Assembly (NCBI GenBank): GCA_038056445.1
Contig: JBBUFP010000014.1
Coordinates: 1-31,463, forward strand
Direction: 5' to 3'
Source: Patescibacteria group bacterium
GTDB taxonomy: Bacteria > Patescibacteriota > Minisyncoccia > Phycocordibacterales > DSPV01
DNA length: 31,463 bases
In this document: piece after piece, positions 2,176 through 22,545 of the stretch
Layout: each line of letters starts with the position of its first letter
Numbering within the stretch: the stretch's first letter is position 1
Position numbers and translations under genes: made by a program
The notes under the pieces: model-generated
Told to the model about the DNA's origin: nothing
What the model saw: only the letters and a program-made list of their open reading frames with translations
Databases searched by the model: none

Positions 2176-3555
2176 ATGAAAACAATTTTTATAAACTTAT
2201 TTTCCATTCTGGCAATGGATAACTTCACGGTCCCGGACGGCGTGATTGACCAGCTGATTCGGCGCAAAGGCCAAGACATTCGTTTGGTATTGCTCACGGG
2301 GGAGAAGCTTTTACCGCGGCTGGCGCCCTATGCCAATGGCCAGACGGTAATCGTTGAAGCGATAAAGTCATTTCCGCCGAGAGGTTTTATCCAAAAGCTT
2401 TTTCATTTTTTCTACGCTTTTCTGATTTTTACCGGCAGTACCAAAGTGCTGGCGACTTTCGGCGCCCGCGCCGACATTCCGCCGGCTGGAGGCAATCGGC
2501 ATATGTGGTTTTTCAAATCCTTAATTGCTAATACTTTCGGTCAGTCGCTTTTTGTGAAGCGGCGGTTGACGCCCTGGCTCTTTAAAATAATTTTTCGTGA
2601 GCGCCCCTATCAACAACTTTTTGCTCGGTATCAGCCGGATTTAGTGATGACGCCGGCGATTGCTTTTTTCCCGGATGTTGAATTGGTTTCGGAGGCGAAG
2701 CGGTGGGGGGTAAAAACGATTGGTATGGTAATGAATTGGGACCATCTTAATAAATATTTTATTCCCATTCACGCCGATTGGCTTTTGGTTCAGAACGAGC
2801 CGATGCGTCGCGAGGCGCTCAATTGGCACGCCTATTCTCCGGAGCAAATTTCAATTGTTGGTTTTCCGCAATTTGATATGTATGCTCAGCCCGATAAGTA
2901 TTTGGTGCCAAAAGTTCAGTTCAAAAAGGCTTTCGGTCTTGAAGGGATTGATAAAACAATCCTGTTCATTTCCGGCGCCGCTTATTCTTTGGATGAGCCG
3001 GATATTATCAAGGAAATTTCCAAGTGGATTAGCGAAGGGAAATTCGGTCCAAAGACCAAACTTCTTATTCGTCCTTACGCTATTGCTCGGGATATAGAAC
3101 GGGAGCGGGAAAAATACAAATCTTTGGAAAATGACCCGAACATCGTTTTTAATTGGCAGAGAAGAAGCGATTCTTTGGAAAGCAAGAAAAATTTTATGAG
3201 TATGCTGGCGTATGCCGATGTGATAATTTCAATTTTTTCCACTACGGCGATTGAATCGGCGATTTTTGATAAGCCGACCATTACCATCGGTTTTGACGGT
3301 TACAAAAAACGACAGTATCACCAATCAATTGTTCGGTTGGAAGATATGTCTCATTTCCGAAATGTTTTGGAAACGGGCAGTGTAAAAGTAGTCCGCAGTT
3401 TTCCTGACCTTTTGGAGACCCTAATTAGTTATATCAAGAATCCAGCCATTGATGCTGACAGGCGGAAAGTTTTAGTTAATAAAATGTGTTATAAAATTGA
3501 CGGCGGCGCCGCCAATAGAATCACCGATTTTATTTTGGAAAAAACCAATGCCTAA
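2176..3555 (+). CDS. GT-B fold putative glycosyltransferase (CDP-glycerol transferase-like; candidate NulO transferase), paralog 1
   Basis: GMVMNWDHL, VGFPQFDMY, DVIISIFSTTAIESAIFDKP and DGGAANRI motifs are shared with the three ORFs at 18495-22545. Confidence 0.65.
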   Translation: MKTIFINLFSILAMDNFTVPDGVIDQLIRRKGQDIRLVLLTGEKLLPRLAPYANGQTVIVEAIKSFPPRGFIQKLFHFFYAFLIFTGSTKVLATFGARADIPPAGGNRHMWFFKSLIANTFGQSLFVKRRLTPWLFKIIFRERPYQQLFARYQPDLVMTPAIAFFPDVELVSEAKRWGVKTIGMVMNWDHLNKYFIPIHADWLLVQNEPMRREALNWHAYSPEQISIVGFPQFDMYAQPDKYLVPKVQFKKAFGLEGIDKTILFISGAAYSLDEPDIIKEISKWISEGKFGPKTKLLIRPYAIARDIEREREKYKSLENDPNIVFNWQRRSDSLESKKNFMSMLAYADVIISIFSTTAIESAIFDKPTITIGFDGYKKRQYHQSIVRLEDMSHFRNVLETGSVKVVRSFPDLLETLISYIKNPAIDADRRKVLVNKMCYKIDGGAANRITDFILEKTNA

Positions 3556-4927
3556 ACAAAATCATTCATTCTTGAAAAAGTTCATTGGCGGCGAAGCCAG
3601 TTTCGGTTTTTGGGATTCGGTTTCCAAAGTCATCGGTTTGGTCAACACTTTTTTCATCATTACCGCGCTGTCGCTCTATCAATACGGTGTATTCCAGTTG
3701 TTGCTTTCCGTCTACGCGATTTTTTCCAACTTTTTAGCGCTCGGAGGCGGGGTGGTTAGCAATGACATCTTGCGCTTTATAGGCGAAGGCAGGGAAGATA
3801 AAGCCAAGAAACTATTTTTTGAATACAACTGGATAAGAATTGTTGCCAGTTTGTTGGCTGCGACTTTTCTCTTTTTTACTCCCGAAGTGCTGGCTCGTTG
3901 GTATGCCTCCGACGCTGTGGCTTTTGTCCGATTGCTAGCCGGATTGTTGCTTTTAGAACTCGCTTATTCAATATTCAAATCAATTTTGAGTTACCGTCTG
4001 CAGTTTGGTTTGGTTGCTTCGCGGGCGACTCTTTACAAATTTGCTCAGCTTGGCATTTTGGCTTTTTTCTTTTTGACCCACCGACTCGGCGTTCGTGAAG
4101 TTATTTACTCTATGATGTTCGGTTCCATTGTTTCCACTTTTATTCTTATCCGGCCAATCTTGCGGTCTTACGGCAAATGGCGGGGTTTGCCCATGTTTAA
4201 AGAAAATATTATTTTTTGGGTTTTTAAGAATCACGGTAAATGGGAAATTTTTCAGCAATTTACCGCCAAGCTCACCGCCTCTTTGCAACCGTGGATTATT
4301 AAGACCTTCGTCAATACCGAGGCGGTGGCGATATTTTCAATCGCTCAAACTATGGCTATTACCATCGTCGGCTTTTATCCAACCAAAACTCTCGGCACTT
4401 TGATGCCGTTGAAAGTTAATGAACCAGCGCAAATGCAAAAAATTTACAATTACGCGGCAAAATATCTTTTTCTGCTAGCTATTGTTATGGCTATCGGCGC
4501 GGCGGTAGCCGGGCCGGCTGCAGTTTACTTATTCTTTCCCAAATATATTCCGTCACTGCCGTATTTTTTCGTTTTGCTTCTGTATCTGCCAATCAATGCC
4601 CTTAGTTCCACCACCTCAATTTTTCTCGTTGCCTTGCGGCGGCAGAGAGATTTATTTTTTCAGAAAGTTTTCAAAGCCATTACCGCCATCCCGATGTTTT
4701 TCTTGGTGATGTTTTTTGGTTTGTGGGGAATGACGGCTAGTCACCTTATTTTCGCTTTTACTTTGTTTTGCACGGCTTACATTTTTCTGCGTCGCGTGCC
4801 ACCAGGCTTTACATTGGAATGGCGGAATTTTTTCCGGTTTGGCGCGGAGGATAAAATTTTCGCCAGAAAATTTCGAACCGAAATTTTATTGTTCTTGAAG
4901 AAAAAGATTACTTTCATAAATTCCTAA
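3548..4927 (+). CDS. Wzx/MOP-family oligosaccharide flippase
   Basis: About 460 aa with many hydrophobic segments and LSLYQYGVFQLLLS and EAVAIFSIAQ patterns. ATG 3548 overlaps the upstream stop (ATGCCTAA). Confidence 0.75.
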   Translation: MPKQNHSFLKKFIGGEASFGFWDSVSKVIGLVNTFFIITALSLYQYGVFQLLLSVYAIFSNFLALGGGVVSNDILRFIGEGREDKAKKLFFEYNWIRIVASLLAATFLFFTPEVLARWYASDAVAFVRLLAGLLLLELAYSIFKSILSYRLQFGLVASRATLYKFAQLGILAFFFLTHRLGVREVIYSMMFGSIVSTFILIRPILRSYGKWRGLPMFKENIIFWVFKNHGKWEIFQQFTAKLTASLQPWIIKTFVNTEAVAIFSIAQTMAITIVGFYPTKTLGTLMPLKVNEPAQMQKIYNYAAKYLFLLAIVMAIGAAVAGPAAVYLFFPKYIPSLPYFFVLLLYLPINALSSTTSIFLVALRRQRDLFFQKVFKAITAIPMFFLVMFFGLWGMTASHLIFAFTLFCTAYIFLRRVPPGFTLEWRNFFRFGAEDKIFARKFRTEILLFLKKKITFINS

Positions 4928-4939
4928 AAAACAAACTTT

Positions 4940-5512
4940 ATGAATAACAACTTGAAAACAAAAATCAAAAATCTCAAACTGATGGTCACCGATTTTGACG
5001 GCGTGTGGACGGATGGTAAGGTTTATTTTTCTCAAACCGGAGAGGAAACGGTGCTTTGTAGCCGGAAGGACACGCTTCGGATAAAGGAGATAAAAGCATT
5101 AGGCGTTGATATCGTGGTTATCTCAAAAGAGGGAAACCCGGTAGTTATGGCGCGTTGCGAGAAGATGAAGGTGGAATGTTTCCAGGGAGTGGATGATAAA
5201 TTGCCGCTGCTCAAGCAGCTTCTTGAGAAGAAAGGTGTTCGGCCGGAAGAGACCGCTTTTGTCGGCGATGACATCAATGATGTGAAATGTTTAAAGTTTG
5301 TCGGCTTGCCGATAACGGTTGCCGATGCTCACAATGATTGCAAAAAAGTCGCGCTTTATACGACCACTCGTAAAGGCGGCGACCACGCGATGCGCGAGAT
5401 TTTTGATTTGATTCTTTGGTCTCAAACCGCGGTGTTTTTTGTTGGTTTACCAGCAGGTTCGGCCGCCATCAACTATAACGGTGCTACCGGTCATAAAAGA
5501 AGAAGCGTCTGA
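4940..5512 (+). CDS. KdsC-like HAD phosphatase (Kdo-8-P / Kdn-9-P / Neu5Ac-9-P phosphatase family)
   Basis: DFDGVWTDG motif I, VISKE motif II, K, GDDIND motif IV and GGDHAMRE. Confidence 0.85.
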   Translation: MNNNLKTKIKNLKLMVTDFDGVWTDGKVYFSQTGEETVLCSRKDTLRIKEIKALGVDIVVISKEGNPVVMARCEKMKVECFQGVDDKLPLLKQLLEKKGVRPEETAFVGDDINDVKCLKFVGLPITVADAHNDCKKVALYTTTRKGGDHAMREIFDLILWSQTAVFFVGLPAGSAAINYNGATGHKRRSV

Positions 5513-7126: not shown

Positions 7127-8896
7127 TTATAGATTTATTTTTTTACCTGAAGCTAGCGACCTTTTCATTGCTACGATAATTTCCATGACGGGCAAATTTT
7201 CCCTGATGCCATTTGTCGGTTTGTTTTTGCTCGCGATAAGATTTAGAAAGTGTCTCGTTTCTTCCAAGAACATGTCGTTGCGGTTGAAATTCGCTGGTTG
7301 CTGGAACTCTCGGACTTTTCCATCAAGAGGAATTAGTTTCAATTTGCCGTCAAAATAGTCCCATCTTAAGCGGCCTTTTTCACCAGTCGCTTCCAGAAAG
7401 CGGACAGCTGGCTGCTTGAAATAATCCAAATGAAGTTCAACATTAAAGTGATTATAGCGCCAAATCGCGGAGACGCAATTTTCAGCGTCAGTCTCCAGGT
7501 CGCCGACTTTGCCGCCGGCGGCAAAAACCCAATTGGGCTTGCCGAAGAGCCAAAATAGAAAATCAATTTCATGGCTTTGGGTAGTAATGGCTCCGCCGCC
7601 TAGATTTTTTCGGCTGGCATAAGACACTTTGTAACTTTCCCATGAATGCCAGTCAGTGACCCTTTCTCCAATGTGCGCCTCCACTGATATTATCTGACCA
7701 AGCTCATTATTTTCCAGATTTTTTTTGAATTCTTTAAGCAGGGGATGGAAACGGTGATTGAAAGCGACCAAGGCGACCAGTTTCCTTTTTTCAATTTCCT
7801 TCTCTAATTTTTTAACTCCAACCATTGTGTCGGAAAGTGGTTTTTCAATCATGACATGGCAACCGGCTTGGGCCGCTTTCAGTGCCGTCCGGACATGCAA
7901 GCTTGTTGGGTTGGTAATAATGGCGGCCATCGGTTGCTCTTTCAGAGCGGCGTCAAGATCTTGATAAACTTTTAGGTTTGGGTTTTTACTCAAAAATTCA
8001 TCGCCGAACGATTTAGTGCCCAAACCGGTTCTGAAGATTATAATATCGGAAGGTTGGTAGCCCAAAGCAAGCAGGTTTTCCGTATGGCGTTTACCTATAC
8101 TTCCCAAACCGCAGATAAGGATCCTTTTGGAATTGCCATTTATTTTGTTTTCGTTAGGATAATTGGCTTTTAAGTAATCAGATACTTGGAACTTCTGATT
8201 CTTAAGAAGAGTTTCAACATACTTCAAGTCACTTTGGGTGTCAATGTCGCCGATGTCGGGAGTTAGGAAAGCAAGAATCTTGGGACCATGAATGACGGGA
8301 TTTTTTAAGACGAACGAGCTTTTGAGTATATCAACATAACTGTCGGGTTTGAAGGTTGGCGGAAACGATTGGCGGTGGAGGTTGTGATAATCGGGACGGG
8401 GGTCGTTTGGAAATAGGCCGACAAAAAATTTACCCTCAAGGGCGAAACATTTCTGTGGTACCGTATTTATTTTATGGCCGGAGCGCAGGCTTGTCGCTTC
8501 CGGATGTTTTAGCATTGTCTCTATGGCCTCATTTATTTTCTCCGGAGCGCGGAGCGGGGAAGTTGGACGGAGATGAACAAAATAATCCGGAATTTTTCCT
8601 TCGTTCTTTTGGAGCCATTCTAGCGCGTGGATAACAAATTCTCGGTCGGTTGAGGTGTCGCCGGAGATTTCAGCGGGGCGTAAGAATGGAACTTCAGCGC
8701 CGTATTTTTTGGCAAGGTCGGCGATTTCCTGGCTGTCGGTTGAAACTATAATCCGCGCGATTTTTTTTGTCAGTTTCGCGGCGGCGATGGAGTAGGCAAT
8801 TAGCGGAAAACCGCCGATTGGCAGGATATTTTTTTTCGGAATGCTTTTTGAGCCGCCCCGGGCCGGAATAAGAGCGTAAATAAGTTTTTTATTCAT
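7127..8896 (-). CDS. Fusion of a CMP-nonulosonate synthetase (NeuA family) and a Gfo/Idh/MocA oxidoreductase
   Basis: N-terminal half: PARGGSKSIPKKN, STD, EVPFLRP, LRPTSPLR, DIDT..D. C-terminal half: ILICGLGSIGKRH, EKP, GGGAITTQSHEID. Confidence 0.85.
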   Translation of the reverse strand: MNKKLIYALIPARGGSKSIPKKNILPIGGFPLIAYSIAAAKLTKKIARIIVSTDSQEIADLAKKYGAEVPFLRPAEISGDTSTDREFVIHALEWLQKNEGKIPDYFVHLRPTSPLRAPEKINEAIETMLKHPEATSLRSGHKINTVPQKCFALEGKFFVGLFPNDPRPDYHNLHRQSFPPTFKPDSYVDILKSSFVLKNPVIHGPKILAFLTPDIGDIDTQSDLKYVETLLKNQKFQVSDYLKANYPNENKINGNSKRILICGLGSIGKRHTENLLALGYQPSDIIIFRTGLGTKSFGDEFLSKNPNLKVYQDLDAALKEQPMAAIITNPTSLHVRTALKAAQAGCHVMIEKPLSDTMVGVKKLEKEIEKRKLVALVAFNHRFHPLLKEFKKNLENNELGQIISVEAHIGERVTDWHSWESYKVSYASRKNLGGGAITTQSHEIDFLFWLFGKPNWVFAAGGKVGDLETDAENCVSAIWRYNHFNVELHLDYFKQPAVRFLEATGEKGRLRWDYFDGKLKLIPLDGKVREFQQPANFNRNDMFLEETRHFLNLIASKNKPTNGIRENLPVMEIIVAMKRSLASGKKINL

Positions 8897-8948: not shown

Positions 8949-10220
8949 TTATCCAATCCACCCAAGTATTTTTTTGAGCGAATCGGGAGTGATTATTTTA
9001 TTTGGTTGTTGGTATTGTTTTTCTAAGGCGTTGTTTTTAAAGGATTGGAGCAAAGAACGCAATTCATCTATGCCGGTTATAAATCTTTTAATAGCGAAGA
9101 AGGAACGGCCCGATTCTATTTGGGGCAGTTTGGAAAGATTCACAAAAATCGCGTCTTTGTTCATTGCCAAAGGAATAAAATTAGTAGTAGAAACACCGGC
9201 GATATAAAGCTCGCTCAAGCCAATGAGCTCGTTGTTGTCGGCAATCGGATTCATAAATTTGACCCCATAGCGATTAAGTTTCTGGTACTGGCCGATGTCT
9301 TCCGAAGGGTGGGGTTTGAATAAAATATCAAATTCTGATTGAGGGCAAATTTCCCGAAGGGTCTTGATAATCGTTTCCGTCAGCTGATATTGTTCTTGGT
9401 CGGTGAGGACGGCAATATCTTTTCTGTTAAAGGGCGTGGAGTAGAAAATAATATTTCGTTTGGACCGGTCAATATTGTGCCGTTTAGCCAATTCCTGGCG
9501 TTTATTTTTGTCATTGGCTAGCTGATTTTTCATTTGTTCACTAAGGTAAAAATCTAAATAACCGACCACGGTCATTTTTTCTTTAGGGATGCCTCTCTCA
9601 ATAAAAAATTCTAGAGTTTGTTCGTTGATGACGCCAAACCTTTTGGCTTTGCCGCCGCCAATCATTCCCTTTGACCAATTTCTCGGTTTATCAAGGACAA
9701 AACCAAGCAAAAAGTTTTTGATTTTGAGGTAGAGTGGTTTGCCGAAACGATAGCTAAACTTGCGCCAAGCGGGCGTTTCTTTTTTTAATAAAATTCTCTG
9801 ACCCGGGTAAGTGAGCGCCCATTGAAGCACCATAGTGTCAATTTGCCGTTGATTGGCTTGTTCCATAAGATAGCCCGAATAGAAACCTTGGTCGTTGGTG
9901 GCGATTATTTTTACCGGGCGCTCCTTATCAAGTAATTTATTAATTTCTTCGGTATAATGTTTATGATTTTTCAAGATCGCGTAAAAAGGTATGTATCTTG
10001 ATAAAAAATTAATTGCCGGCGGTTCAACCGCATAGAACGGGTGTTGATTGATTCTGGCGTATTCCAGCATTTTGCCGTAGGATTTTCTGCCGAAAATAAT
10101 CAGGAATTTGACTTCATAATGCTCGGCTATGAAAGGCAAAAGTTTTTCAAAATATTTAAAACTCCCCACATAATGGGGGATTAAAAAGAGTAATGGTTTA
10201 GAATGGGGTTGCGTTGGCAT
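8949..10220 (-). CDS. GT-B fold putative glycosyltransferase with HP and ST motifs (candidate sialyl/NulO transferase)
   Basis: RPVKII..ND, VLQW, VVGY, FKPHPSED and GVSTT resemble the HP and S(S/T) motifs of bacterial GT-B sialyltransferases. Confidence 0.55.
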   Translation of the reverse strand: MPTQPHSKPLLFLIPHYVGSFKYFEKLLPFIAEHYEVKFLIIFGRKSYGKMLEYARINQHPFYAVEPPAINFLSRYIPFYAILKNHKHYTEEINKLLDKERPVKIIATNDQGFYSGYLMEQANQRQIDTMVLQWALTYPGQRILLKKETPAWRKFSYRFGKPLYLKIKNFLLGFVLDKPRNWSKGMIGGGKAKRFGVINEQTLEFFIERGIPKEKMTVVGYLDFYLSEQMKNQLANDKNKRQELAKRHNIDRSKRNIIFYSTPFNRKDIAVLTDQEQYQLTETIIKTLREICPQSEFDILFKPHPSEDIGQYQKLNRYGVKFMNPIADNNELIGLSELYIAGVSTTNFIPLAMNKDAIFVNLSKLPQIESGRSFFAIKRFITGIDELRSLLQSFKNNALEKQYQQPNKIITPDSLKKILGWIG

Positions 10221-10281: not shown

Positions 10282-11154
10282 ATGGCAAAGGATTTCTCTA
10301 TTACAGTCGGCAATAAAAAGATTGGCCACAATCATCCGGTTTTTATCATTGCGGAAATCGGCATCAATCATAATGGCGATTTAGATATAGTTAAAAAACT
10401 TATTGATGTGGCGGTAGACGCGGGCGCCGACGCGGTTAAATTTCAAAAGCGGACCATTGAGGTTGTCTATATGCCGGAAGCTCTGGCCGCGCCGCGCGAA
10501 AGCCCATTCGGTAAAACCAACGGTGATTTGAAGAAGGGTTTGGAATTTGGCGTCAAGGAGTATAAAACGATAGACGGATATTGCCGGCAGAAGGGCATTC
10601 TTTGGTTTGCTTCCTGTTGGGATGAGGGGGCGGTGGATTTTATTGAGAAATTTAATCCGCCGGTTTACAAAATTGCTTCGCCTTCTTTAACTGACCATGG
10701 CCTACTGCGCCACATCAAAGCGAAAAAGAAGCCCATTATTCTCTCAACAGGGATGAGCGATTTGGCGATGGTCAGAAAAGCGGTCTCAGTGCTCGGCAAG
10801 AAAAATCTGGCGTTGATGCATTCCGTTTCCACTTATCCGGCTTCGCATACGGAGCTTAACCTTTTATGTATTCCAACGCTTAGAAAGACCTTCGGTTTAC
10901 CTACGGGTTATTCTGGTCACGAGGTTGGGATAACTTCGCCCTTGGCGGCTGTGGCGCTGGGCGCTTGCCTTGTGGAGAGGCACATCACTCTTGACCGAGC
11001 GATGTGGGGTTCCGACCAAGCCGCTTCGCTTGAGCCATACGGTTTCAAGAAAATGATTATCTATATTCGCCAGTTTGAAGCGTCTTTGGGCGATGGAGTC
11101 AAAAGGATTATGGAATCCGAAGTGCCGGTTTTGAAAAAGCTGCGGCGGAAATAA
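10282..11154 (+). CDS. neuB: NeuB-family nonulosonate synthase, short form without the C-terminal antifreeze-like (SAF) domain
   Basis: IIAEIGINHNG, KFQKR, STGM, HSVSTYP, GYSGHE, ERH.TLDR and GSDQAASLEP; the protein ends at 290 aa. Confidence 0.9.
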   Translation: MAKDFSITVGNKKIGHNHPVFIIAEIGINHNGDLDIVKKLIDVAVDAGADAVKFQKRTIEVVYMPEALAAPRESPFGKTNGDLKKGLEFGVKEYKTIDGYCRQKGILWFASCWDEGAVDFIEKFNPPVYKIASPSLTDHGLLRHIKAKKKPIILSTGMSDLAMVRKAVSVLGKKNLALMHSVSTYPASHTELNLLCIPTLRKTFGLPTGYSGHEVGITSPLAAVALGACLVERHITLDRAMWGSDQAASLEPYGFKKMIIYIRQFEASLGDGVKRIMESEVPVLKKLRRK

Positions 11155-12732: not shown

Positions 12733-12737
12733 TTGTT

Positions 12738-13730: not shown

Positions 13731-13738
13731 AGAAATAA

Positions 13739-14722
13739 ATGATGGAAAAATTTCCCTATGAAAAAGCCGAACAGGAAGAAGTGCCGTGCGGTTTTTGCGG
13801 TTCGCGGGACTTAGAAGTTTTGGCGGAAGCGGGGCAAGACGGTTTGCCGCTGCGGACGGTTATTTGCCGAGTTTGCGGTTTGGTTTTTATTAATCCGCGA
13901 ATGACCAGAGAGTGGTACGCTCGCTATTACCAAGAGGAATACCGAACGAATACCATTGGAAATATTCAAAAGAAACCGCCGGACTTTGACAAGCTTTTTG
14001 TTTCAATGACCAAGCACGGCGAAGAGCTGGCTGAATTTATTCAACCGTATCTTAAAGTTGCCGGTCTGGTAGCCGAAGTTGGTTCTAGTTTAGGCGGGAT
14101 TTTAGCTGGTATCAAAAACAAACTTAATCGCGAAGTGGTGGGCATAGAACCATCACAACCGGAAGTTGATTATGCTAATCGTCAAGGAGTTAAATCCATT
14201 TGTTCGCTCATTGAAACTCTTGAAGAAAAGTTTTCTCAACCGCCAAAATTTGGCGCGGTGATTTGTTCTCAGTCGCTTAATCATTTTCTTGAACCGAAAC
14301 TTTTTTTTGTTTGGGCGCATAAACATCTTTTGGCTGGCGGCTTGTTGGTTTTGGAAGTGATGAATTTTCGCCACCAGCTTAAAAAAGCCGGCCGCTTCCG
14401 GAACGCGGTGAAAATTGACCATGTTCAGATGTTCACGCCGGAGGTTTTGAAAAATTTTGTTGAAGCGGCCGGCTTTGATATTTTGTATTTTGATGTTGAT
14501 GAAACTAAAAGCCAGCAGCAGTTGAACGCAATCAATCGCGTTTTACCCAAAGTCCATATTACTTGCGTTGCCCGCAAAACTTCGCGTCCGCCGTTTGAAA
14601 ATTTTGCCGTTGTGCCAAATTATCAGCGAGTCAGGCGAACGCTGAATAAATTGAAAATTTATCTTTATTATCTTTTTGCTGTCAGGCTGCCGAGGTTGGA
14701 TAAAAAATCCCGTTCCGAATAG
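13739..14722 (+). CDS. Class I SAM methyltransferase with a Zn-ribbon N-terminus (paralog of 25416-26396)
   Basis: CGFC...CRVCGLVFINPRMT, EVGSSLGG, GIEPS and QSLNH. Confidence 0.8.
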   Translation: MMEKFPYEKAEQEEVPCGFCGSRDLEVLAEAGQDGLPLRTVICRVCGLVFINPRMTREWYARYYQEEYRTNTIGNIQKKPPDFDKLFVSMTKHGEELAEFIQPYLKVAGLVAEVGSSLGGILAGIKNKLNREVVGIEPSQPEVDYANRQGVKSICSLIETLEEKFSQPPKFGAVICSQSLNHFLEPKLFFVWAHKHLLAGGLLVLEVMNFRHQLKKAGRFRNAVKIDHVQMFTPEVLKNFVEAAGFDILYFDVDETKSQQQLNAINRVLPKVHITCVARKTSRPPFENFAVVPNYQRVRRTLNKLKIYLYYLFAVRLPRLDKKSRSE

Positions 14723-14735
14723 GTGTCGGAACGGG
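14709..14735. terminator. Intrinsic terminator-like hairpin between convergent genes
   Basis: Perfect 10-bp stem cccgttccga / tcggaacggg with a 7-nt loop; followed by ATTTTTTA on the minus strand. Confidence 0.7.
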
Positions 14736-14751
14736 TTGGTTGTTGTCCGGA

Positions 14752-15087
14752 CTATTTTGCCGCGAACAGGGCATTGACCGGAAAACTTTCGAAAAAGATG
14801 AAGGTTAGGATTCCTTCCTCAAGGCAGAGGAGTTTTCTTTTACCCGATGTGTCTGCGACCGCGGTGGAAATAATCAGCGAACTGGATTCACTGGGCTTAA
14901 TTTTTGCCAGTGTTTTCATACCTTGGAAACCAAGAGGTATCAGCCCAAGTTTGCGGATTGCTTTGTCCATGGCCTCCTCGTTGAGTTCTGAATCAACCGC
15001 TTTAACCAGTGATATTTCGATTATCCCCTCTCCGTCAGTTGGAACCGGAATCTTTCTTACCACTTGCACACTTGTTTTTTTTATCAC
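14752..15087 (-). CDS. Small hypothetical protein (111 aa, GTG start; start uncertain)
   Basis: Open frame bracketed by a consensus promoter upstream and a terminator downstream; no recognisable family. Confidence 0.5.
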   Translation of the reverse strand: MIKKTSVQVVRKIPVPTDGEGIIEISLVKAVDSELNEEAMDKAIRKLGLIPLGFQGMKTLAKIKPSESSSLIISTAVADTSGKRKLLCLEEGILTFIFFESFPVNALFAAK

Positions 15088-15122
15088 AATCTTCGCCTTT
15101 GTTGAGGTTCTGTTCAGCCCAT

Positions 15123-15174
15123 AAGTTACCGCATTATTATTTTCTTGTCAAGAAACTACAATATGTGCTAATCT
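15123..15174. promoter_or_regulatory. Back-to-back promoters sharing a TTGTCAA -35 region
   Basis: Minus strand: TTGACA(15151-15146)-17 nt-TAACTT(15128-15123). Plus strand: TTGTCA(15145-15150)-18 nt-TAATCT(15169-15174) with an extended TG. Confidence 0.55.
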
Positions 15175-15218: not shown

Positions 15219-15729
15219 ATGTTAAGGGACCGGCGTTCTCAACTGTGTCGAGGACTTGATTTTCAGAAAGCTGGCATCCAGGCCATAAGCCGCGCCATTG
15301 GGGCGACGGCGCCCGGAAATGTCTTGGAACTCGGTAGCGGTAACGGTTTTAACCTGTTGGCGCTTTCCGCCATGCACCCGGAAATCAAGGAGTGGCAGGG
15401 CGTAGAATTTACAAAAAGCGGTATCGCCGCGTCCGAGAAATTAAAGCGGGAACCGCCGTTTGACGCTCTGATTTACATGACCGAGTTGCCGCGAGAGGAG
15501 ATTACCAGAAGATTAAACGGGGCGCGGATTGAATATCGTTAAGGTGATGTGCAGTCACTGCAAAAGTTACGATTACTTCCGCTCCAGTGTTAATGTTGTG
15601 GAACGAGCCGGCCTCAAGATTCTAAAATTTGAGCGCCTGCCGCTTAACAAGATTCCGCAGTCGGTGGGTTTGCTTCTTTGCGCCCCAGCCAAGGTGGGGC
15701 GCACTCCCACAGACTTTATTTTTTTCTAA
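15219..15729 (+). pseudogene. Disrupted class I SAM methyltransferase
   Basis: VLELGSGNG motif I, then a premature TAA (15540-15542) followed in frame by GDVQSL. A shifted frame then gives a C-terminus-like YFRSS...VERAGLKILKFE; the central motifs are missing. Confidence 0.7.
15679..15703. terminator. GC-rich hairpin at a convergent junction (possible terminator, no clear U tract)
   Basis: 9-bp stem tgcgcccca / tggggcgca with a 7-nt loop, 13 nt past the stop of the 15716-16399 gene. Confidence 0.4.
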
Positions 15730-16399
15730 GTATTTGTATGACTTCCGCGCCGAAAAATTTTTTGAATTTCAGCCAATTTTTTTTCACAGCGATTCTTTTT
15801 AACCAACCTAACCTATTTTTGTAAATCTTTGGGTCAACCCAGTATTCCACCGCTAACTCATTAAAGTATTTTAGAATCGTCTTTTTGTAAATCGCCGGGG
15901 TAAATACAGAAATATGGTCGTTATCTTCGGTGAATCTTTCCAGTTCACCAGTCAAAAAGAAAAGTTTTCTAGCGTGAAGTGAAGTATTGGGCATTTCGTT
16001 AAAAAATATGCCGCCTGGTTTTAAAACCCGATAAATTTCTCTGATGAAATGGTGAGGATTTTCAAGGTGCGCCAATAAACACCAAGCCGTAACAGCGTCA
16101 AAAAAATCGTTAGGGTAAGGCAACTTATCTACATTGGCGTCTACTTCGGCAAAATTTCCGATTTTTTTCACTCTCATATCAGTAATGTCTAGGCCGTAGG
16201 CGTTGTAACCTTTTTCTAAAAGATGACGGATGAAATGGCCTCCGCCAATACCGCAATCTAACACTTTTTTACCTGTAAGAATTGACTCATATTTTTCAAA
16301 AGTTTCTATTCCGAACGGTAAGCCGTAACACAATTCTACATAAGGCGAAGTATCAATCTTCGCCCTCAGCTCGTCTGTTGTTTTGTATGGTAGACGCAT
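15716..16399 (-). CDS. Class I SAM methyltransferase (type 11-like)
   Basis: VLDCGIGGG, GLDI, LPYPNDFFDAV and LAHLENP...EIYRVLKPGG. Confidence 0.85.
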   Translation of the reverse strand: MRLPYKTTDELRAKIDTSPYVELCYGLPFGIETFEKYESILTGKKVLDCGIGGGHFIRHLLEKGYNAYGLDITDMRVKKIGNFAEVDANVDKLPYPNDFFDAVTAWCLLAHLENPHHFIREIYRVLKPGGIFFNEMPNTSLHARKLFFLTGELERFTEDNDHISVFTPAIYKKTILKYFNELAVEYWVDPKIYKNRLGWLKRIAVKKNWLKFKKFFGAEVIQILRKK

Positions 16400-16409: not shown

Positions 16410-18434
16410 TTACTTATCGCCTTTCAAGAATTTATATTTTGAAAGTTTAGCTAGAGCTATTCGAAATTCCCGGTAATCATTGATGTGGCCTTGCCAGATT
16501 TCCGGTATCCAACTTATGCCCCCGCTTTCTTTAGGAAGATGTTGCTCGAGAATTTCGAACACCTTTTCAAAAGGCACATCACCTTCGCCTATTTGCAATC
16601 CTTCTTTATAGCAACCGCGGCCGTCAGCGATGTGCAGGTGACGGACCAAGGGCGCCACTTTTTTGATATATTCCAGGTAATCTTGATTTTCGGCGACACA
16701 GAAGAGCCAGGCGTGGGAGAGGTCTAGGCACATATTTAAATTCAGTTTGTTGCAAAACTCAATCATTTCGTCAGCGGCCCCGAAGACATTGTGTTTCCAT
16801 AATCCGCCGAAGTGCCAGCTAAAAGCAGGCAGATTTTCCGGCAGAAGAGTTACGCCTTTGTAGTCTAAACATTTGAATGCTTCTATCGCGCGGTTAAGGA
16901 GTTTTTTTGGTTGCGGGTGGGGCGTGATGGTTATGCCCCCGACATGGATTACAATACCGGGGATTCCCTCGAAGTGCTCGGCGATTTCTCGGGTTTTGTC
17001 AATGGTCTTTTGAATAATTTCGATTGAACTTTTCCAGATCCGTTCGTTTTCGGAAGCTAGATCTACTTCCGTTCTTTCGTTGTATTCAGGCGCATGAACG
17101 AACAGCTGAAAAGGGTATTTGGAGTTCTTCTCAAATTTGAAGTCGAGGTCTTTGTCATTTACATGAAATTCCAAAAGAGTCGGTTTCGGTTCGAATTTCA
17201 TCAGTTGATTTAATTCGAAAAAGCGCGCCTTTAATCCCCACCTCGTTTCAATCTTGCCAATGTGGTTTTCAATTTGCCGAGCGTCAAGGTCGTCATTGGT
17301 GAAAAATTCATCTTCAGCAATCAATCTTTTGGCGGTTTTTCCTACGAGGTCAAAAATTCTCTGGGGAGAAATTCCGAACCCAGGGCCTTTCACAGTTATC
17401 ATGTCTCGAGTAATCTTAGTGCCGGGAGCGATATCAGTCCCGGCTGTCAAGCTCTTACGTAAAATTAGTTTGTTCATGACTTCGCCGCGACTAACCTGTT
17501 TTACCGGCAGGCCGAGAGCGATTTCACATTCGCGAATCTTTTTAACTAATTCTTTAAATTGGCTGGGTAAAAGCGAGGCCGCGTGGTCCGGCCCTTCGGC
17601 CTCTCGATCAAGAGTGATATGCCTCTCGATAACTCTGGCTCCCAGAGCGATGGCGGCCAGAGTCGGTTCAAGGCCTGTTTCGTGGCCGGAATAACCGACG
17701 GGAACGCCATAACGATGTTTGAGGATTTTAATGAAAGATAAGTTTAAGGTGTCCAAACCGGCCGGATAAGAGCTTTGGCAATGAAGCAACACAAAAACAG
17801 CCCGGGCGCGATGCAAAAAAGCGACGGTCCTTTCAATTTCGTCAATAGTGGACATACCGGTTGAAACAATCAGCGGTTTGTTTTCTTTAAGTAGCCGTTC
17901 CAATAAGGGAATGTTCACTAAATCAGCTGAAGACACCTTGTAGAGCGGGGGAGTAATCACCTCCTTTAGGAAGTCCACGCTTTGTTCGTCAAAAGGAGTC
18001 GCAAAAAAAACCAGTCCGTGTTTATCGGCCTGAGCTTTTAAGGCGCGATATTCTTTTTCCCCAAACTCGCTTTCTTTGAGAATCGGTATAACATAACGAA
18101 GCGCTTGGTCGGTCAGATTAGGATTTTCCACCACTTCTTTTTGATAGACCGCCAGCAGTTGTCTTTTCTGAAATTTGACAGCGTCAGCTCCGGCTTCGGC
18201 AGCGGCGTCAATAAGTTTTAAAGCCTCGGTAAGTTTGCCATTGTGGTTGATTCCGATTTCGGCAATGATAAAGACGGGCACCTTTTCGCCGATGGCTTTA
18301 TTGCCAATTTTTATTGTCTGTGGCGATGGGGCCAGAATCTTTCTAGCTTTGATTATGAATCTGGTCCACAGACGACGGCTCCATAGTTTGCGCGTATCCC
18401 CATCCCCGAGAATTTTTAGAATCTTATTTAGCAT
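16410..18434 (-). CDS. NeuB-family synthase + SAF domain + C-terminal xylose-isomerase-like TIM barrel (three-domain fusion)
   Basis: EIGINHNG, KFQKR, HCQSSYP, GYSGHE, ERH, GPDHAASL; then LRKSL..DI..G..IT.DM..KGPG; then VIHVGG, ENLP, DLSHA, HLHIADG, EIWQGH. Confidence 0.85.
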   Translation of the reverse strand: MLNKILKILGDGDTRKLWSRRLWTRFIIKARKILAPSPQTIKIGNKAIGEKVPVFIIAEIGINHNGKLTEALKLIDAAAEAGADAVKFQKRQLLAVYQKEVVENPNLTDQALRYVIPILKESEFGEKEYRALKAQADKHGLVFFATPFDEQSVDFLKEVITPPLYKVSSADLVNIPLLERLLKENKPLIVSTGMSTIDEIERTVAFLHRARAVFVLLHCQSSYPAGLDTLNLSFIKILKHRYGVPVGYSGHETGLEPTLAAIALGARVIERHITLDREAEGPDHAASLLPSQFKELVKKIRECEIALGLPVKQVSRGEVMNKLILRKSLTAGTDIAPGTKITRDMITVKGPGFGISPQRIFDLVGKTAKRLIAEDEFFTNDDLDARQIENHIGKIETRWGLKARFFELNQLMKFEPKPTLLEFHVNDKDLDFKFEKNSKYPFQLFVHAPEYNERTEVDLASENERIWKSSIEIIQKTIDKTREIAEHFEGIPGIVIHVGGITITPHPQPKKLLNRAIEAFKCLDYKGVTLLPENLPAFSWHFGGLWKHNVFGAADEMIEFCNKLNLNMCLDLSHAWLFCVAENQDYLEYIKKVAPLVRHLHIADGRGCYKEGLQIGEGDVPFEKVFEILEQHLPKESGGISWIPEIWQGHINDYREFRIALAKLSKYKFLKGDK

Positions 18435-18446
18435 TGACAATTTATA

Positions 18447-18494: not shown

Positions 18495-19862
18495 ATGAGA
18501 AGAACCATCTTTATCACCAGTTTTCACCCCCTAATCTCCAGAAACATCATTCGCACCGAGGTGATTTCGAAGTTGATTTCTAATGCCTGTCGAGTTGTTG
18601 TTCTCGTACCGAAGTCAAAACTCGATTATTTTAAAAAGGAATTCGAGCGGGGAGAAGTTTTGGTTGAAGGTGTGGAAACCGGCGCCGCCATTCGAACCTT
18701 GCGTGTTGGCATAATGAAGCGCCTAGCTGAAGCGCTCCCTAACACTAAGCGCGCGGCGCTTGGCCGGCGGCTTACATTATCGGGAAACAAAAAGAACGCT
18801 CTGTATTATTTTTTTTTCTATTTACCGGCGGGCTTTTTGGGTAAGAGCAAGTTGTTTATGAAGCTCGCTCGTTTCTTTGACTACTTTATTTCCCCACGCG
18901 GTCGTTTTTATCCGCTTTTTGAGAAATATAAACCCGACTTGATTTTCTCGACGGATGTTCAAAATGAGCATGATGTCTGTCTTGTGCAAGATGCCCATAA
19001 GAAGGGGATTGTCGTAATTGGCATGGTACGGTCTTGGGATAACTTGGTGACTCGAGCTTTTCGCTTTGTGCCGGACAAACTTATGGTTCACAACAACATA
19101 ATCAAAGAACAAGCCGTATCAATTTACGGTCTCAAGCCCGATAAAATAATTGTGACCGGTGTGCCACATTACGATAAATATGTCAAAGCGCCTTTTGTTT
19201 CCAGGGAGGAATTTTTCCGGCGCGTTGGTCTCGACCAGACCAAAAAGACGGTTTTATTTTTTCCGCTTTGCGATTACAGGATAGTGAGAAAGGGAGGAGA
19301 AACGCCCACTTATACGGACAAGGACGCTTTAGAGGCGCTTTCTAAAATATCGGCCAATGTTATTGTCCGTTTCCCACCGAATGAAACGGTGACCATTCCG
19401 GACTTTGTTAAGCCCGTCAATTTTTTCTATGACCAGCCCGGCGTTTCTTTCGGCCAGGGCGCGTCTATTACTACCAGAGAACTTAACACTGACGATGATA
19501 TCCGCTTAGCGAATGAATTATATTATTCCGACGTCGTCGTTTCCGGTCCGTCAACCGCGGTGATTGATGCGGCTGTCTTTGATAAGCCGATAATATTTCT
19601 AGATTTTGGCCGCGACGGCGCCGATTCTTTGGTCGGCAGGATTTTTGAATATGAATCAGAACACATCGTCAATATTTTGAAAACCGGTGGGGCAAGGGTG
19701 GCTACTGCCGAAAATTCTCTCAAAAAAGAAATCGGTCTTTACTTAGAGAATCCGAAGCGGGATAGTATTGGTCGGACGAGAATTGTGAAAGAGCAGTGCT
19801 TTTTAACCGACGGAAAGGCCAGCGAGCGAGTGACGGCGGCCATTCTTGAAAATATCAAATGA
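18495..19862 (+). CDS. GT-B fold putative glycosyltransferase (candidate NulO transferase), paralog 2
   Basis: IFITSFH, GMVRSWDNL, TGVPHYDKY, GPSTAVIDAAVFDKP and DGKASERV. Confidence 0.65.
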   Translation: MRRTIFITSFHPLISRNIIRTEVISKLISNACRVVVLVPKSKLDYFKKEFERGEVLVEGVETGAAIRTLRVGIMKRLAEALPNTKRAALGRRLTLSGNKKNALYYFFFYLPAGFLGKSKLFMKLARFFDYFISPRGRFYPLFEKYKPDLIFSTDVQNEHDVCLVQDAHKKGIVVIGMVRSWDNLVTRAFRFVPDKLMVHNNIIKEQAVSIYGLKPDKIIVTGVPHYDKYVKAPFVSREEFFRRVGLDQTKKTVLFFPLCDYRIVRKGGETPTYTDKDALEALSKISANVIVRFPPNETVTIPDFVKPVNFFYDQPGVSFGQGASITTRELNTDDDIRLANELYYSDVVVSGPSTAVIDAAVFDKPIIFLDFGRDGADSLVGRIFEYESEHIVNILKTGGARVATAENSLKKEIGLYLENPKRDSIGRTRIVKEQCFLTDGKASERVTAAILENIK

Positions 19863-21178
19863 AAAAAACCATTTTTATAACCAGCTTTCATATTCTTATC
19901 TCGCGAAATATTTTGGCGACCGGTATTTTGCCGTTGCTTGCCAAACGAAACGGGGTTCAGGTGGTGATTCTTTGCCCAAAGAAGAAGGAGGGGTTTTTCC
20001 GGAAAGAATTTGAAAAAGCCGGAGTGCTCGTTGAGCCAGTGTCAGTCCGATTAAACTGGCGGGATTTTTGCCTCCGTTTTTTATCGCTGGCGTCTTTGCG
20101 GACGAAAACCCTTTGGCTTAAACGGCGAACAGAAATGAAAGGTGTCGGCGCGGTTTTTTCAGAACTCATACCCGCTTTTTTAGCAAGTTGGCTGACACGC
20201 CGGTTGAGTCCGTTTCTGACACCACAAAATCGCTTCCAGCCACTTTTGGAAAAATATCAGCCGGAGTTGATTTTTGCCACTGATGTCCAAAATGAATATG
20301 ATGTGTCTTTGATGCATGAGGCCAGAAAGCGGGGGGTAAAAATTGTCGGTATGGTGCGGTCTTGGGATAATCTGGCGGCTAAAGGTTTATTGCGAATTAT
20401 TCCCGCTCTTTTGCTGGCCAACAACGAGCTGGTGAAGCGGGAAGCGATGGCTCTGCACGGTGTGCCGGCCGAAAAAATTCAGGTGGTTGGTTTGCCTCAT
20501 TACGATAATTATTTCCAAGCGCCAAAACTTTCTCGTTTGGAATTGGCTGAAAAACTCGGTTTGAATGCCGCCAAAAAATTTGTTTTATTCGTCCCGGTTG
20601 GCGACCGCTATCTCACCGATAATTTTGTTGATAAAAATGCCTTAACTTTGCTTGATAAAATTTTGCCGGGCGATTGGGAAATTTCGGTCCGTTTGCCGCC
20701 GGCTGATTCGGTGAAAGAAATCGAGGGGGGTAATTTTTCGGAACGGGTAAAAATTTATCGGCCGGGTGGCTACTTTGGCAATGTTAAAAACACCGAACTT
20801 TCCCGCATTGATGACGAAATTTTAATCGCCAGCATTAAATACTCCGATTTAATTGTTGCCGGACCGTCCACGATGGTGATTGACGCGGCGATTGCCGATA
20901 AGCCGATAATTTTGGTAGGCTTTGACGGCAAAGAAAACGCGTCTTATTTTCAAAGCGTGCGCCGTTATTACGATTACAATCATTTTCAACCGATTCTGGA
21001 AAGCGGCGGCGTCCCGTTGGCGCGAAGCGAAGAAGAGTTTGAAAAACTTGTCAGAGCGTATCTTGCCGACCAAACTTTGGATTGGGCGGGGCGCCGCCGG
21101 ATTGTTGAATTGGAATGCCAATTTACCGACGGCCAATCAAGCCAAAGGGTAGTTGAGGAATTAGAAAAATTTCTATGA
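19859..21178 (+). CDS. GT-B fold putative glycosyltransferase (candidate NulO transferase), paralog 3
   Basis: IFITSFH, GMVRSWDNL, VGLPHYDNY, GPSTMVIDAAIADKP and DGQSSQRV; ATGA overlap with the upstream gene. Confidence 0.65.
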   Translation: MKKTIFITSFHILISRNILATGILPLLAKRNGVQVVILCPKKKEGFFRKEFEKAGVLVEPVSVRLNWRDFCLRFLSLASLRTKTLWLKRRTEMKGVGAVFSELIPAFLASWLTRRLSPFLTPQNRFQPLLEKYQPELIFATDVQNEYDVSLMHEARKRGVKIVGMVRSWDNLAAKGLLRIIPALLLANNELVKREAMALHGVPAEKIQVVGLPHYDNYFQAPKLSRLELAEKLGLNAAKKFVLFVPVGDRYLTDNFVDKNALTLLDKILPGDWEISVRLPPADSVKEIEGGNFSERVKIYRPGGYFGNVKNTELSRIDDEILIASIKYSDLIVAGPSTMVIDAAIADKPIILVGFDGKENASYFQSVRRYYDYNHFQPILESGGVPLARSEEEFEKLVRAYLADQTLDWAGRRRIVELECQFTDGQSSQRVVEELEKFL

Positions 21179-22545
21179 GCCAAAAAGTCAAAACAATTTT
21201 TCTGACGATTTTTGAAGGGGTGGAAGCCAAGAATCTTTTGCGCACCTCGGTTTTGCCGACTTTGCTGGCCGACCCGGCGGTTCGGATTATTTTGTTTACC
21301 AAGAGCGCGGAAAAAGTTGAATATTACAAAAAAGAATTTTCCGACTCGAGATTGATTTATGAAGTAGCATCGCGTCAGCCGATTAGCGGCTGGGACGCGA
21401 TTTTCGCCAAGTTAAAATTTACTTTGCTTCGGACGGTGACCACTGATTTAAAACGCCGGTTGCATTACGAACGAGAGAAAAACTTTTTCCGCTATTTCGG
21501 CGGTTTGTTCGCCAATCGGCTTTTGGCTTGGCCAGTGGTTAGGAAAATTGTTCGTTGGCTGGATTTTATTTTGATTCACCAAGATTGTTACGCGCCGGTT
21601 TTTGAAAAGTATCAGCCCGATTTGGTTTTTCTTGCCCATCTTTTTGACGAGCCGGAAATTGCTCTGTTGCGGGAAGCGAAAAAACGGGGAGTGAAAACTG
21701 TCGGCTTGATAAATTCTTGGGACAAGACAACCGCCCGTTGTATTTTGCGATTATTGCCGGATAAGGCGATTGTTTTTAATGAAATTGTGAAGCGGGAACT
21801 TATGGCGCACGATGAAATGAAAGCGGAAAACATTTTTATTTCCGGCTTGCCCCAGTATGATATCTATTGGCAAGCCCAACCCCATTCTCGCGAAGAATTT
21901 TTTAACGCCATCGGTATCGGCTCCGAGAAAAAACTGATTATCTACGCGCCGAACGGGCGCTACTCAAAGTCGGCGGACGGTCTGATGATAGACACGCTGC
22001 ACACATTCGTTGAAAATGCTTTTCCTAGGAAAGATGTTGGCTTACTGGTTCGCTTTCAGCCTAATGATTTTGTTGACCTGGCCGAAATCCAGAAACGGCC
22101 TTGGCTTGTTTATGAGATTCCAGGTCTCCGTTTTTCAAGCAAGCGCGGCGTTGATTGGGATATGGATGCCGATGATATAAAATTATTGACAAACACTCTT
22201 TTTCATTCATCTTTGTTTATCTGCTATACGTCTAGTTTGAGTATTGACGCTGCTGTTTTTGACAAGCCGATTATCAACATTGATTTTGAATTGGAAAAAT
22301 CAGATAATCCACTGAACTCGCCAACGATGTACTATAACATGGACCATTATATAAATGCCACGAAAACTGGAGGAATTCGAGTGGTTAAAAGCAGAGAAGA
22401 ACTTTTTAAATGGATTTCCTTGTATTTAGCTAATCCAGCTTTGGACGCAGTTGGTCGGCGGCGTTTGGTTTTGGAACAATGCGGCACAGTTGATGGCAGG
22501 GCGGGGGAGAGAATTGGACAGTTTACTTTAAAAAATCTTTTATGA
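21175..22545 (+). CDS. GT-B fold putative glycosyltransferase (candidate NulO transferase), paralog 4
   Basis: GLINSWDKT, SGLPQYDIY, TSSLSIDAAVFDKP and DGRAGERI; ATGA overlap. Confidence 0.65.
   Translation: MSQKVKTIFLTIFEGVEAKNLLRTSVLPTLLADPAVRIILFTKSAEKVEYYKKEFSDSRLIYEVASRQPISGWDAIFAKLKFTLLRTVTTDLKRRLHYEREKNFFRYFGGLFANRLLAWPVVRKIVRWLDFILIHQDCYAPVFEKYQPDLVFLAHLFDEPEIALLREAKKRGVKTVGLINSWDKTTARCILRLLPDKAIVFNEIVKRELMAHDEMKAENIFISGLPQYDIYWQAQPHSREEFFNAIGIGSEKKLIIYAPNGRYSKSADGLMIDTLHTFVENAFPRKDVGLLVRFQPNDFVDLAEIQKRPWLVYEIPGLRFSSKRGVDWDMDADDIKLLTNTLFHSSLFICYTSSLSIDAAVFDKPIINIDFELEKSDNPLNSPTMYYNMDHYINATKTGGIRVVKSREELFKWISLYLANPALDAVGRRRLVLEQCGTVDGRAGERIGQFTLKNLL

Follow-up and report, generated by a model that had tools for sequence, protein, structure and literature searches.

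The window analysed here, 31,463 nucleotides of contig JBBUFP010000014.1 (C14 below), belongs to a 458-kb metagenome-assembled genome (MAG) of the Parcubacteria/Paceibacterota type that is 79% complete, and it constitutes a glycan locus for nonulosonic acids (NulO) in which, according to Pfam and NCBIfam, three NulO modules accompany five members of the GT-B family. An earlier note on this DNA had drawn attention to the five open reading frames (ORFs), which start at positions 2176, 18495, 19859 and 21175 (GTB1 to GTB4) or extend over 8949-10220 on the minus strand (GTB5), and all of them were located at the coordinates that it gave. We propose that GTB1-4 are probably membrane-associated CMP-NulO glycosyltransferases that act on a lipid-linked glycan, with Asp182 and Arg292 in the place of the histidine pair of TagF. 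This proposal builds on their homology, their fold, the loss of the two histidines and their linkage to NulO genes, from which we infer what donor and acceptor are used and which residues act in catalysis.

GTB1-4 are genuine paralogs, as the similarity between them is far above chance. In pairwise BLASTP comparisons they share 27-40% identity across ~350-460 residues, with E values from 1e-34 to 4e-100; the latter corresponds to GTB3 and GTB2 (40% identity), while GTB1 matches GTB2-4 with E values from 1e-34 to 8e-42. In the alignment of the four (A1), the W-D motif reads NWDH, SWDN, SWDN and SWDK, and G-x-P-(Q/H)-(F/Y)-D-x-Y, S(T/S)..I(D/E).A..DKP and DG....R(I/V) are likewise present in all of them. 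As the earlier note had described, three of the genes stand in tandem with ATGA overlaps, which can be read from the DNA at 19859-19862 and 21175-21178, and a third overlap (22542-22545) couples GTB4 to a deacetylase gene. The same note was also right in stating that the HP site is changed in the four (to R-P, P-P, P-P and Q-P), a position that is homologous to the HP histidine of the family in profile alignments with TarL and classical TagF-like proteins, and that the fifth ORF bears K-P-H-P and an S-T motif (S-T-T). BLASTP provides no link between GTB5 and GTB1-4 (E 0.007 or worse), but hhalign relates it to the profile of the four paralogs with a probability of 93.9% (E 1.6e-7, 240 columns), so that GTB5 is a distant relative of the four, seen by profile comparison only.

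Although the earlier note had considered that these ORFs might form an unclassified family, the comparison with PF04464 (Glyphos_transf, TagB/TagF-like) that it had recommended places GTB1-4 above the gathering threshold of 22.1 bits (37.5, 51.6, 46.5 and 37.5 bits, respectively), while GTB5 has no match to this Pfam model. In addition, public records name close homologs “CDP-glycerol glycerophosphotransferase family protein”, a search of the ESM Atlas returned PF04464-labelled clusters only, and the best sequence matches of the profile of the four in the PDB are TarL and Cps3D. With its own profile, GTB5 gave nothing meaningful in the PDB sequence search; 32 homologs of it were found, and those that are named belong to Parcubacteria. 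In NCBIfam, all five ORFs best match NF046086 (“BFO_1060 family glycosyltransferase”), with scores of 48.7, 48.2, 41.6, 42.8 and 29.1 bits for GTB1-5 that lie below its curated cutoff of 200 and thus do not make them members, and the TarB and TarF models of NCBIfam score only ~22 bits on the four. BFO_1060 is the strain homolog of Tanf_01245 and TFUB4_00887 of Tannerella forsythia, TagB-like proteins without which, in knock-outs, the O-glycan lacks its terminal derivative of pseudaminic or legionaminic acid (PMC5420450), so that a TagB-like NulO transferase has a genetic precedent. GTB1-4 are, as judged from these profile matches, a branch that has diverged within a known Pfam family and that has a known functional precedent. 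This branch is large, since our representative library holds ~1,942 clusters at 50% identity that match at E 1e-30 or better.

The active site is where this branch departs from its relatives. According to the cryo-EM study of TarL, this enzyme, TagB and TagF all depend on two invariant histidines: H300, in W-H, is the catalytic base, and H433, in K-M-H-P, touches the alpha-phosphate and protonates the departing CMP, while P395 and E497 contact the cytidine and the ribose (PMC10901376). Five classical TagF-like proteins from Patescibacteria genomes were used as reference (A3), and their invariant residues include the histidine of W-H-G, the P-T of P-T-W-R, the histidine of the C-terminal domain and the D-x-S of T-D-Y-S-S. 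A family alignment of 50 sequences (A2) aligns with A3 in hhalign with a probability of 98% (E 8.5e-14) across the C-terminal domain. There, G-x-P-R-x-D of the classical proteins corresponds to G-x-P-H-Y-D, P-T-(W/F)-R to P-x-G-D, (K/R)-x-H to R292-F-P294 and T-D-Y-S-S to (S/T)-G-P-S-T, while D-G...S-x-R is kept. This part of the alignment, and with it the pairing of the HP histidine with P294, is robust; in the N-terminal domain, W-H-G falls on W181-D182-N183 with low confidence in global and low-threshold alignments, a pairing that is supported by the shared tryptophan and the equal position in the strand. W181, D182 and R292 are invariant in the 50 family sequences, and position 294 is proline in 45 of them and histidine in none. 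By contrast with this loss of both catalytic histidines, the counterparts of P395 and E497 of TarL are P257 (48 of 50) and D358 (47 Asp and 3 Glu). From sequence alone, then, the nucleotide-binding half looks retained, and the phosphotransfer pair looks replaced by Asp and Arg/Pro.

The predicted structures agree with this assignment at the level of the fold. The AlphaFold model of GTB2, which was built with A2 (predicted local distance difference test, pLDDT, 93.2; predicted template modelling score, pTM, 0.92), shows two Rossmann-like domains and a cleft between them, i.e., a GT-B fold, and the model of GTB5 (pLDDT 92.3) is likewise GT-B. Searches of the PDB with Foldseek and VIA-align gave full-length matches of both models to many GT-B structures (Z 19-25). 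The neighbours of GTB2 include NeuC and UDP-GlcNAc 2-epimerases (Z 24-25), GT4 enzymes (Z about 21), TarL (Z 20.8; its 17% identity is the highest listed), TagF (Z 19.5), Cps3D (Z 17.9) and Bcs3 (Z 16.9). The kinship with the GT38, GT52 and GT80 sialyltransferases that the earlier note had suggested does not extend to GTB2, as none of these enzymes is among its top 50 PDB folds, but it finds weak support in GTB5, which matches the bacterial polysialyltransferase 5wc6 with Z 19.4 (rank 7, level with TarL at Z 19.4). This match is in line with the near-threshold score of GTB5 for the GT38 polysialyltransferase model PF07388 (22.7 bits, below the gathering threshold of 23.3), to which GTB1-4 have no match. 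The fold search was therefore set aside as a discriminator, since it yields generic GT-B neighbours that speak neither for nor against a sialyltransferase-like function. The GTB2 model also has a four-helix insert at residues 62-135, which is strongly basic and amphipathic (across the family, a median of 15 K+R vs 4 D+E); its likeness to the monotopic membrane helices of TarL points, in the model, to a lipid-linked acceptor.

The association with NulO genes was assessed in 401 evenly sampled Patescibacteria genomes, where matches to the A2 profile at E 1e-20 or better were taken as family members. Such members occur in 23 of the 401 genomes and NeuB in 64, yet NeuB is present in 22 of the 23 genomes with the family vs 42 of the 378 without it, and the pattern recurs in nine family-level groups. 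The lone family-bearing genome without a NeuB match is 92% complete and consists of ~80 contigs. Every full-length match (G270, G350, G125, G324, G138 and G095) has NeuB on the same contig and less than 10 kb away. In the simplest cases (G008, G085 and G061), there are compact three-gene operons (L046:6752-10787, L047:6714-10669 and L048:7195-11190) that code for a fusion of NeuB to a xylose-isomerase-like TIM barrel (~630 aa in all), a CMP-NulO synthetase and a GTB protein of ~390 aa. In G125 the gene order is NeuA-NeuC-NeuB-GTB-Wzx-GTB, and homologs of Wzx, which here lie between family copies, adjoin them in G350 and G095. Similarly, three metagenomic contigs, Taylorbacteria and Sungbacteria among them, carry two to four family copies interleaved with methyltransferases, together with NeuB, CTP_transf_3, 2-hydroxyacid dehydrogenase and KdsC-like phosphatase genes, and no TagD or IspD family was seen on these three contigs. 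In fact, methyltransferases are interleaved with family copies in all contexts inspected. As side observations, the NeuB::TIM fusion found in the window is common across the phylum, where many ~630-aa open frames were seen, and a fragment of a YfhO-like (GT-C type) membrane protein (L015:2778-3803) stands directly upstream of the GTB gene in the NeuB-NeuA-GTB operon of G008.

The family was also sought in 185,579 species genomes, a wider scan that yielded 208 relatives; 77 loci were retrieved for them with flanks of 8 kb, 41 of these loci being of at least 15 kb. All 77 come from Patescibacteria-type MAGs, and among the 41 long loci a NeuA homolog is found within 8 kb in 27 and a NeuB homolog in 20.

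TagD, which would be expected to accompany CDP-glycerol transferases, shows a different distribution. A bona fide TagD (above the cutoff of TIGR01518) is present in three of the 401 genomes (G010, G347 and G370) and in none of the 23 with the family. The three TagD genomes serve as a positive control, as they carry classical PF04464 genes (110-353 bits) a few kb from TagD (L055-L062); in the full-length classical copies that were checked, the match spans almost all of the Pfam model, and both W-H-G and the histidine of the C-terminal domain are retained. From its gene content, this looks like a true teichoic-acid-like pathway, rare in the phylum; some of its classical TagF/TarF-like open frames are very long (938-1200 aa). 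Weak PF01467 matches were rejected as TagD because they are not enriched with the family (7 of the 23 family-bearing genomes vs 116 of the 401 overall). The genome of the window has a sole PF01467 protein, of 157 aa and on another contig (G000:C7:9980-10264; L006:1345-1818, minus strand), that best fits RfaE domain II (69 bits) and then TagD (54 bits), both below cutoff. No IspD-type enzyme was found in this 79% complete genome, and the search for TarI was confined to it, so that a supply of CDP-polyol was found neither there, through TagD or IspD, nor through TagD in the 23 family-bearing genomes. Two of the 77 loci of the wider scan contain a TagD-like cytidylyltransferase gene at a distance of 6-7 kb from a family member (L099:1536-1832 and L139:606-1007); compared with the TagD of Patescibacteria, these genes show 34-40% identity and score 60-69 bits. 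Consequently, in the co-occurrence comparison that the earlier note had put forward, the homologs track NeuB/NeuA and not TagD; its central claim, that these ORFs are CMP-NulO transferases, gains from this linkage, while the function itself is predicted from sequence.

How the copies may divide their work is suggested by a tree in which 12 genomes or contigs are represented by 32 family members and GTB5 serves as the root. This tree resolves a GTB4 orthogroup (six genomes; SH-aLRT branch support 99), a GTB2/GTB3 group and a long GTB1 branch, as well as a deep group of three without a member in the window and a group of the ~390-aa proteins of minimal operons. GTB3 groups with the GT4-adjacent copy of the Sungbacteria contig, and in other genomes GTB triads repeatedly include an ortholog of GTB1 (35-49% identity). 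As these orthogroups are conserved, the copies arose by old duplications and presumably have different specificities. The clearest case is GTB4, whose orthologs adjoin NeuB-NeuC-NeuA in G125 and NeuB-2-hydroxyacid dehydrogenase-NeuA on the Taylorbacteria contig, where there is no NeuC-like match; an ortholog with at least 50% identity is found in six of the seven loci with a strong NeuB3/NeuC-type module, which is suggestive of a specific link between GTB4 and the NeuC-type NulO module. The earlier note had assumed that each paralog has its own donor (or linkage). As a general rule, one paralog per donor is unlikely and was rejected on copy numbers, because a single NeuB accompanies four copies in G350, and a single NeuB/NeuA set two copies in G125; the window contains five copies and three modules. 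Different acceptors or linkages explain these numbers better than different donors. Fusions argue in addition for consecutive action in one pathway. One of them joins GT4 and GTB in a protein of 854 aa (G095; L045:6695-9259), and the representative library contains tandem GTB-GTB proteins of ~900 aa (P0153, P0154, P0167, P0186 and P0202), which mirror the ATGA-overlapped tandem genes of the window. On the Sungbacteria contig, the GT4 gene overlaps a family member.

If GTB1-4 transfer NulO, they and, more distantly, GTB5 would be monotopic GT-B enzymes of the TagB/TagF CDP-polyol phosphotransferase lineage that were re-tooled for CMP-NulO. The three NeuB/cytidylyltransferase sets would make the CMP-NulO donors, GT4, together with a phosphoglycosyl transferase from another part of the genome, would begin an undecaprenyl-phosphate-linked glycan, and every paralog would add NulO at a different acceptor position or linkage. 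The methyltransferases and the deacetylase would afterwards modify the glycan, the Wzx-like protein would flip the product, and a Wzy_C+TPR protein would polymerise or ligate it. In the active site, the invariant Asp of W-D would take the role of the base histidine of TagF and deprotonate the acceptor hydroxyl, which would attack C2 of the sugar instead of phosphorus, and the departure of CMP would be stabilised by Arg292 and the start of the (S/T)-G-P-S-T helix, in place of the lost HP histidine.

Several components of this scheme lie outside the window. The Wzy_C (O-antigen ligase/polymerase-like) protein, of 748 aa and with C-terminal TPR repeats, is encoded ~1.4 kb past the window end on the same contig (C14:32888-35134; L140:1889-4135), where it closes the locus and is followed by the housekeeping genes hpf, fmt, def and udg; it is a candidate NulO-glycan polymerase, ligase or O-oligosaccharyltransferase. 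A Bac_transf phosphoglycosyl transferase is encoded on another contig (C28). With the Wzx-like gene, these proteins fit a Wzx/Wzy-type route on a polyprenyl carrier, whose product may be a polymer, a glycan linked to the wall or an O-glycan on protein; neither an LCP ligase nor a Maf-type NulO transferase was found in this 79% complete genome, and the lack of a Maf-type protein speaks for our proposal.

A number of observations weigh against our proposal. The scores of GTB1-4 for NF046086, 42-49 bits vs a cutoff of 200, make the kinship with the Tannerella proteins a distant one, and both these proteins and the GT-B sialyltransferases keep the HP histidine that GTB1-4 lack. The alignment of D182 with the catalytic histidine, in the N-terminal domain, has only the tryptophan and the strand position behind it, and an acidic ribose-binding residue is general among GT-B enzymes and hence no proof of a cytidine nucleotide. 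The co-occurrence counts overstate their statistical strength, as related genomes are not independent samples, and the weaker matches of one family (f40, 75-126 bits) stand on contigs other than that of NeuB. Neither NeuA nor NeuB is found within 8 kb in 14 of the 41 long loci. Such loci were, however, dropped as counter-examples: when five genomes with loci that lack both genes were searched whole, all five held NeuB, in three of them 1.5-33 kb past the locus edge on the same-numbered contig, so that the gene clusters exceed the 8-kb flank. Finally, copies outnumber NulO modules, the loci also contain genes that serve other nucleotide sugars (DegT, epimerase/dehydratase and Gmd), some family copies may use other donors, and the activity of this branch is itself a prediction.

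Some of these observations would also be expected if the five ORFs were GT-B enzymes of a NulO-glycan pathway in which only one or two (e.g., GTB4 and GTB5) move NulO, while the others use UDP- or GDP-sugars to build the acceptor chain. The surplus of copies in G350 and G125 and the genes for other activated sugars would be accounted for in this way, as would the fact that GT4 is the sole other glycosyltransferase of the window, since neutral sugars need further transferases, and that only the GTB4 orthogroup is tied to one NeuB/NeuC type. We regard such a division of labour as rather unlikely, though it is the strongest competitor, because all orthogroups share one active-site set (W-D, R292, D358, D-G and R445), which argues for a single type of reaction, because single-copy NeuB-NeuA-GTB operons exist, and because the family descends from enzymes with CMP as the leaving group.

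It is much less probable that the public annotation is correct and that these proteins are CDP-glycerol or CDP-ribitol polyol-phosphate transferases for a teichoic-acid-like polymer. Membership in PF04464, the names given by NCBI, the top PDB sequence matches to TarL and Cps3D and the two loci with a TagD-like gene would agree with this function, but the two histidines on which TagB, TagF and TarL depend are absent from the four and P-T-W-R is also replaced, bona fide TagD is missing from the family-bearing genomes and IspD from that of the window, and the classical histidine-bearing TagF-like genes of the phylum are those that stand near TagD. The least credible alternative, for which we see hardly any room, is that the ORFs are not transferases and act as NeuC/WecB-like sugar-nucleotide 2-epimerases or hydrolases of the NulO pathway. 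The top structural matches of both models are indeed NeuC and UDP-GlcNAc 2-epimerases (Z 22-25), with GT4, TarL and TagF (Z 19.5-21) so close behind that the ranking reflects the common GT-B fold. The family profile aligns with the NeuC of the window with an hhalign probability of 0.5%, there is no Pfam Epimerase_2 match, sequence homology runs to TagF-like transferases and a basic membrane-type insert is unexpected in soluble epimerases. A NeuC-like enzyme was consequently rejected, the likeness to epimerases being at fold level only.

The genes that surround the five ORFs (Table 1) make up the rest of the NulO-glycan locus. There are three NeuB proteins (one short and one in a TIM-barrel fusion), three PF02348 cytidylyltransferases (one fused to a Gfo/Idh/MocA oxidoreductase) and one NeuC, together with a Gmd-like dehydratase, a KdsC/Kdn-9-P-type phosphatase, five S-adenosylmethionine (SAM) methyltransferases, a polysaccharide deacetylase, one GT4, a Wzx-like flippase and an EamA transporter. 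The Pfam and NCBIfam scan of the window proteins revealed no glycosyltransferase family beyond GT4 and the five GT-B ORFs, in agreement with the inventory of the earlier note (one GT4, three CMP-NulO synthetases and no further transferases). Between methyltransferase genes, there are two small ORFs on the plus strand (14723-15124, 133 aa, and 15219-15542, 107 aa) that have no Pfam match and are putative only.

Table 1. Features of the window discussed in the text, with the profile scores that support their assignment.
Feature	Position	Strand	Description and scores
GT4 glycosyltransferase	883-2115	-	Glycos_transf_1, 107 bits
GTB1	2176-3555	+	459 aa; most divergent His-less TagF-like GT-B paralog; divergent from GT4 gene
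Wzx-like flippase (Polysacc_synt)	3497-4927	+	PF01943, 33.7 bits
KdsC/Kdn-9-P-type HAD phosphatase	4940-5512	+	TIGR01670, 126.8 bits (above cutoff); NF058599 (Kdn-9-P phosphatase), 115 bits
CMP-ulosonate synthetase::Gfo/Idh/MocA oxidoreductase fusion	7127-8896	-	PF02348, 81.6 bits, and GFO domains; PseF-like, 132.7 bits
GTB5	8949-10220	-	423 aa; distant relative; precedes the NeuA::GFO, TIM-barrel and SDR genes, which run in the same direction
Short NeuB	10282-11154	+	NeuB, 257.6 bits
CMP-NulO synthetase	11157-11921	+	CTP_transf_3, 75.6 bits; PseF-like, 142 bits
Two SAM-dependent methyltransferases	12633-14722	+	Methyltransf_23/11
SAM-dependent methyltransferase	15716-16399	-	Methyltransf_23, 76 bits
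NeuB-SAF::xylose-isomerase-like TIM barrel fusion	16410-18440	-	NeuB, 260 bits; AP_endonuc_2, 75 bits; divergent from GTB2
GTB2	18495-19862	+	455 aa; His-less TagF-like GT-B; first of the tandem three
GTB3	19859-21178	+	439 aa; tandem paralog; ATGA overlap with GTB2
GTB4	21175-22545	+	456 aa; tandem paralog; ATGA overlap at either end
Polysaccharide deacetylase	22542-23426	+	Pfam
Methyltransferase	23433-24389	+	Pfam
Gmd-like 4,6-dehydratase	24344-25423	+	Pfam; Gmd TIGR01472, 342 bits (below cutoff of 415)
Methyltransferase	25416-26396	+	Pfam
NeuB	26360-27523	+	Pfam
NeuC	27513-28688	+	TIGR03568, 338 bits (above cutoff)
CMP-NulO synthetase	28663-29400	+	PseF-like, 181.8 bits

To our knowledge, few transferases are known for bacterial sialic-acid-like sugars, namely Maf, FlmG, a few GT-B enzymes and the two Tannerella proteins. 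Within the literature collection that was searched, no relevant work on NulO in Patescibacteria came up. If our proposal is correct, it would name the enzymes that decorate the surfaces of ultra-small episymbiotic bacteria with NulO sugars, provide new biocatalysts for NulO glycoconjugates and offer a clear case of a phosphotransferase scaffold turned into a glycosyltransferase through the swap of a catalytic pair. The branch comprises ~1,900 clusters, which public records mis-name CDP-glycerol transferases, and it is also a warning against carrying the “teichoic acid” annotation over to these genomes. A bolder version, which we think improbable, is that Patescibacteria turned a teichoic-acid polymerase scaffold into histidine-independent CMP-ulosonate transferases, whose batteries, with the methyltransferases, would build an oligo- or poly-NulO polymer, a phosphate-free anionic analog of teichoic acid, by an Asp-base/Arg-assisted mechanism undescribed for sialyltransferases or TagF-like enzymes.

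Three known systems can be compared with the family. With the GT38, GT52 and GT80 sialyltransferases, it would share the class of donor, CMP-NulO, an Asp as the probable catalytic base and the S-(S/T) motif at the start of a helix, and GTB5 comes close to GT38 in both its PF07388 score and its structural match; the absence of a PF07388 match and of the HP histidine separates GTB1-4 from them. With TagB, TagF, TarF and TarL, as well as Cps3D and Bcs3, the family has in common its PF04464 membership by score, the profile homology of the C-terminal domain, the GT-B fold, the basic membrane-type helical insert, the probable leaving group (CMP) and the conserved blocks G-x-P-x-x-D, S-(S/T), D-K/R-P and D-G...R. 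It differs from them in the replacement of both catalytic histidines and of P-T-W-R, in its neighbours, which are NeuB/NeuA instead of TagD, and in matching only part of the Pfam model with 28-52 bits, whereas the classical proteins of Patescibacteria match the whole model with 110-353 bits. The Tannerella enzymes, which were compared through HMM scores (29-49 bits for the window ORFs vs the 200-bit cutoff) and their published description, keep the HP and D/E-D/E-G motifs (PMC5420450), while here the HP histidine is found in GTB5 only, a locus can contain as many as five copies and the hosts are Patescibacteria. The two groups also have features in common, as the Tannerella proteins are likewise TagB-like GT-B enzymes of ~440 aa, encoded beside NulO biosynthesis genes and near a methyltransferase gene, for which CMP-NulO donors and a glycan acceptor have been proposed (PMC5420450).

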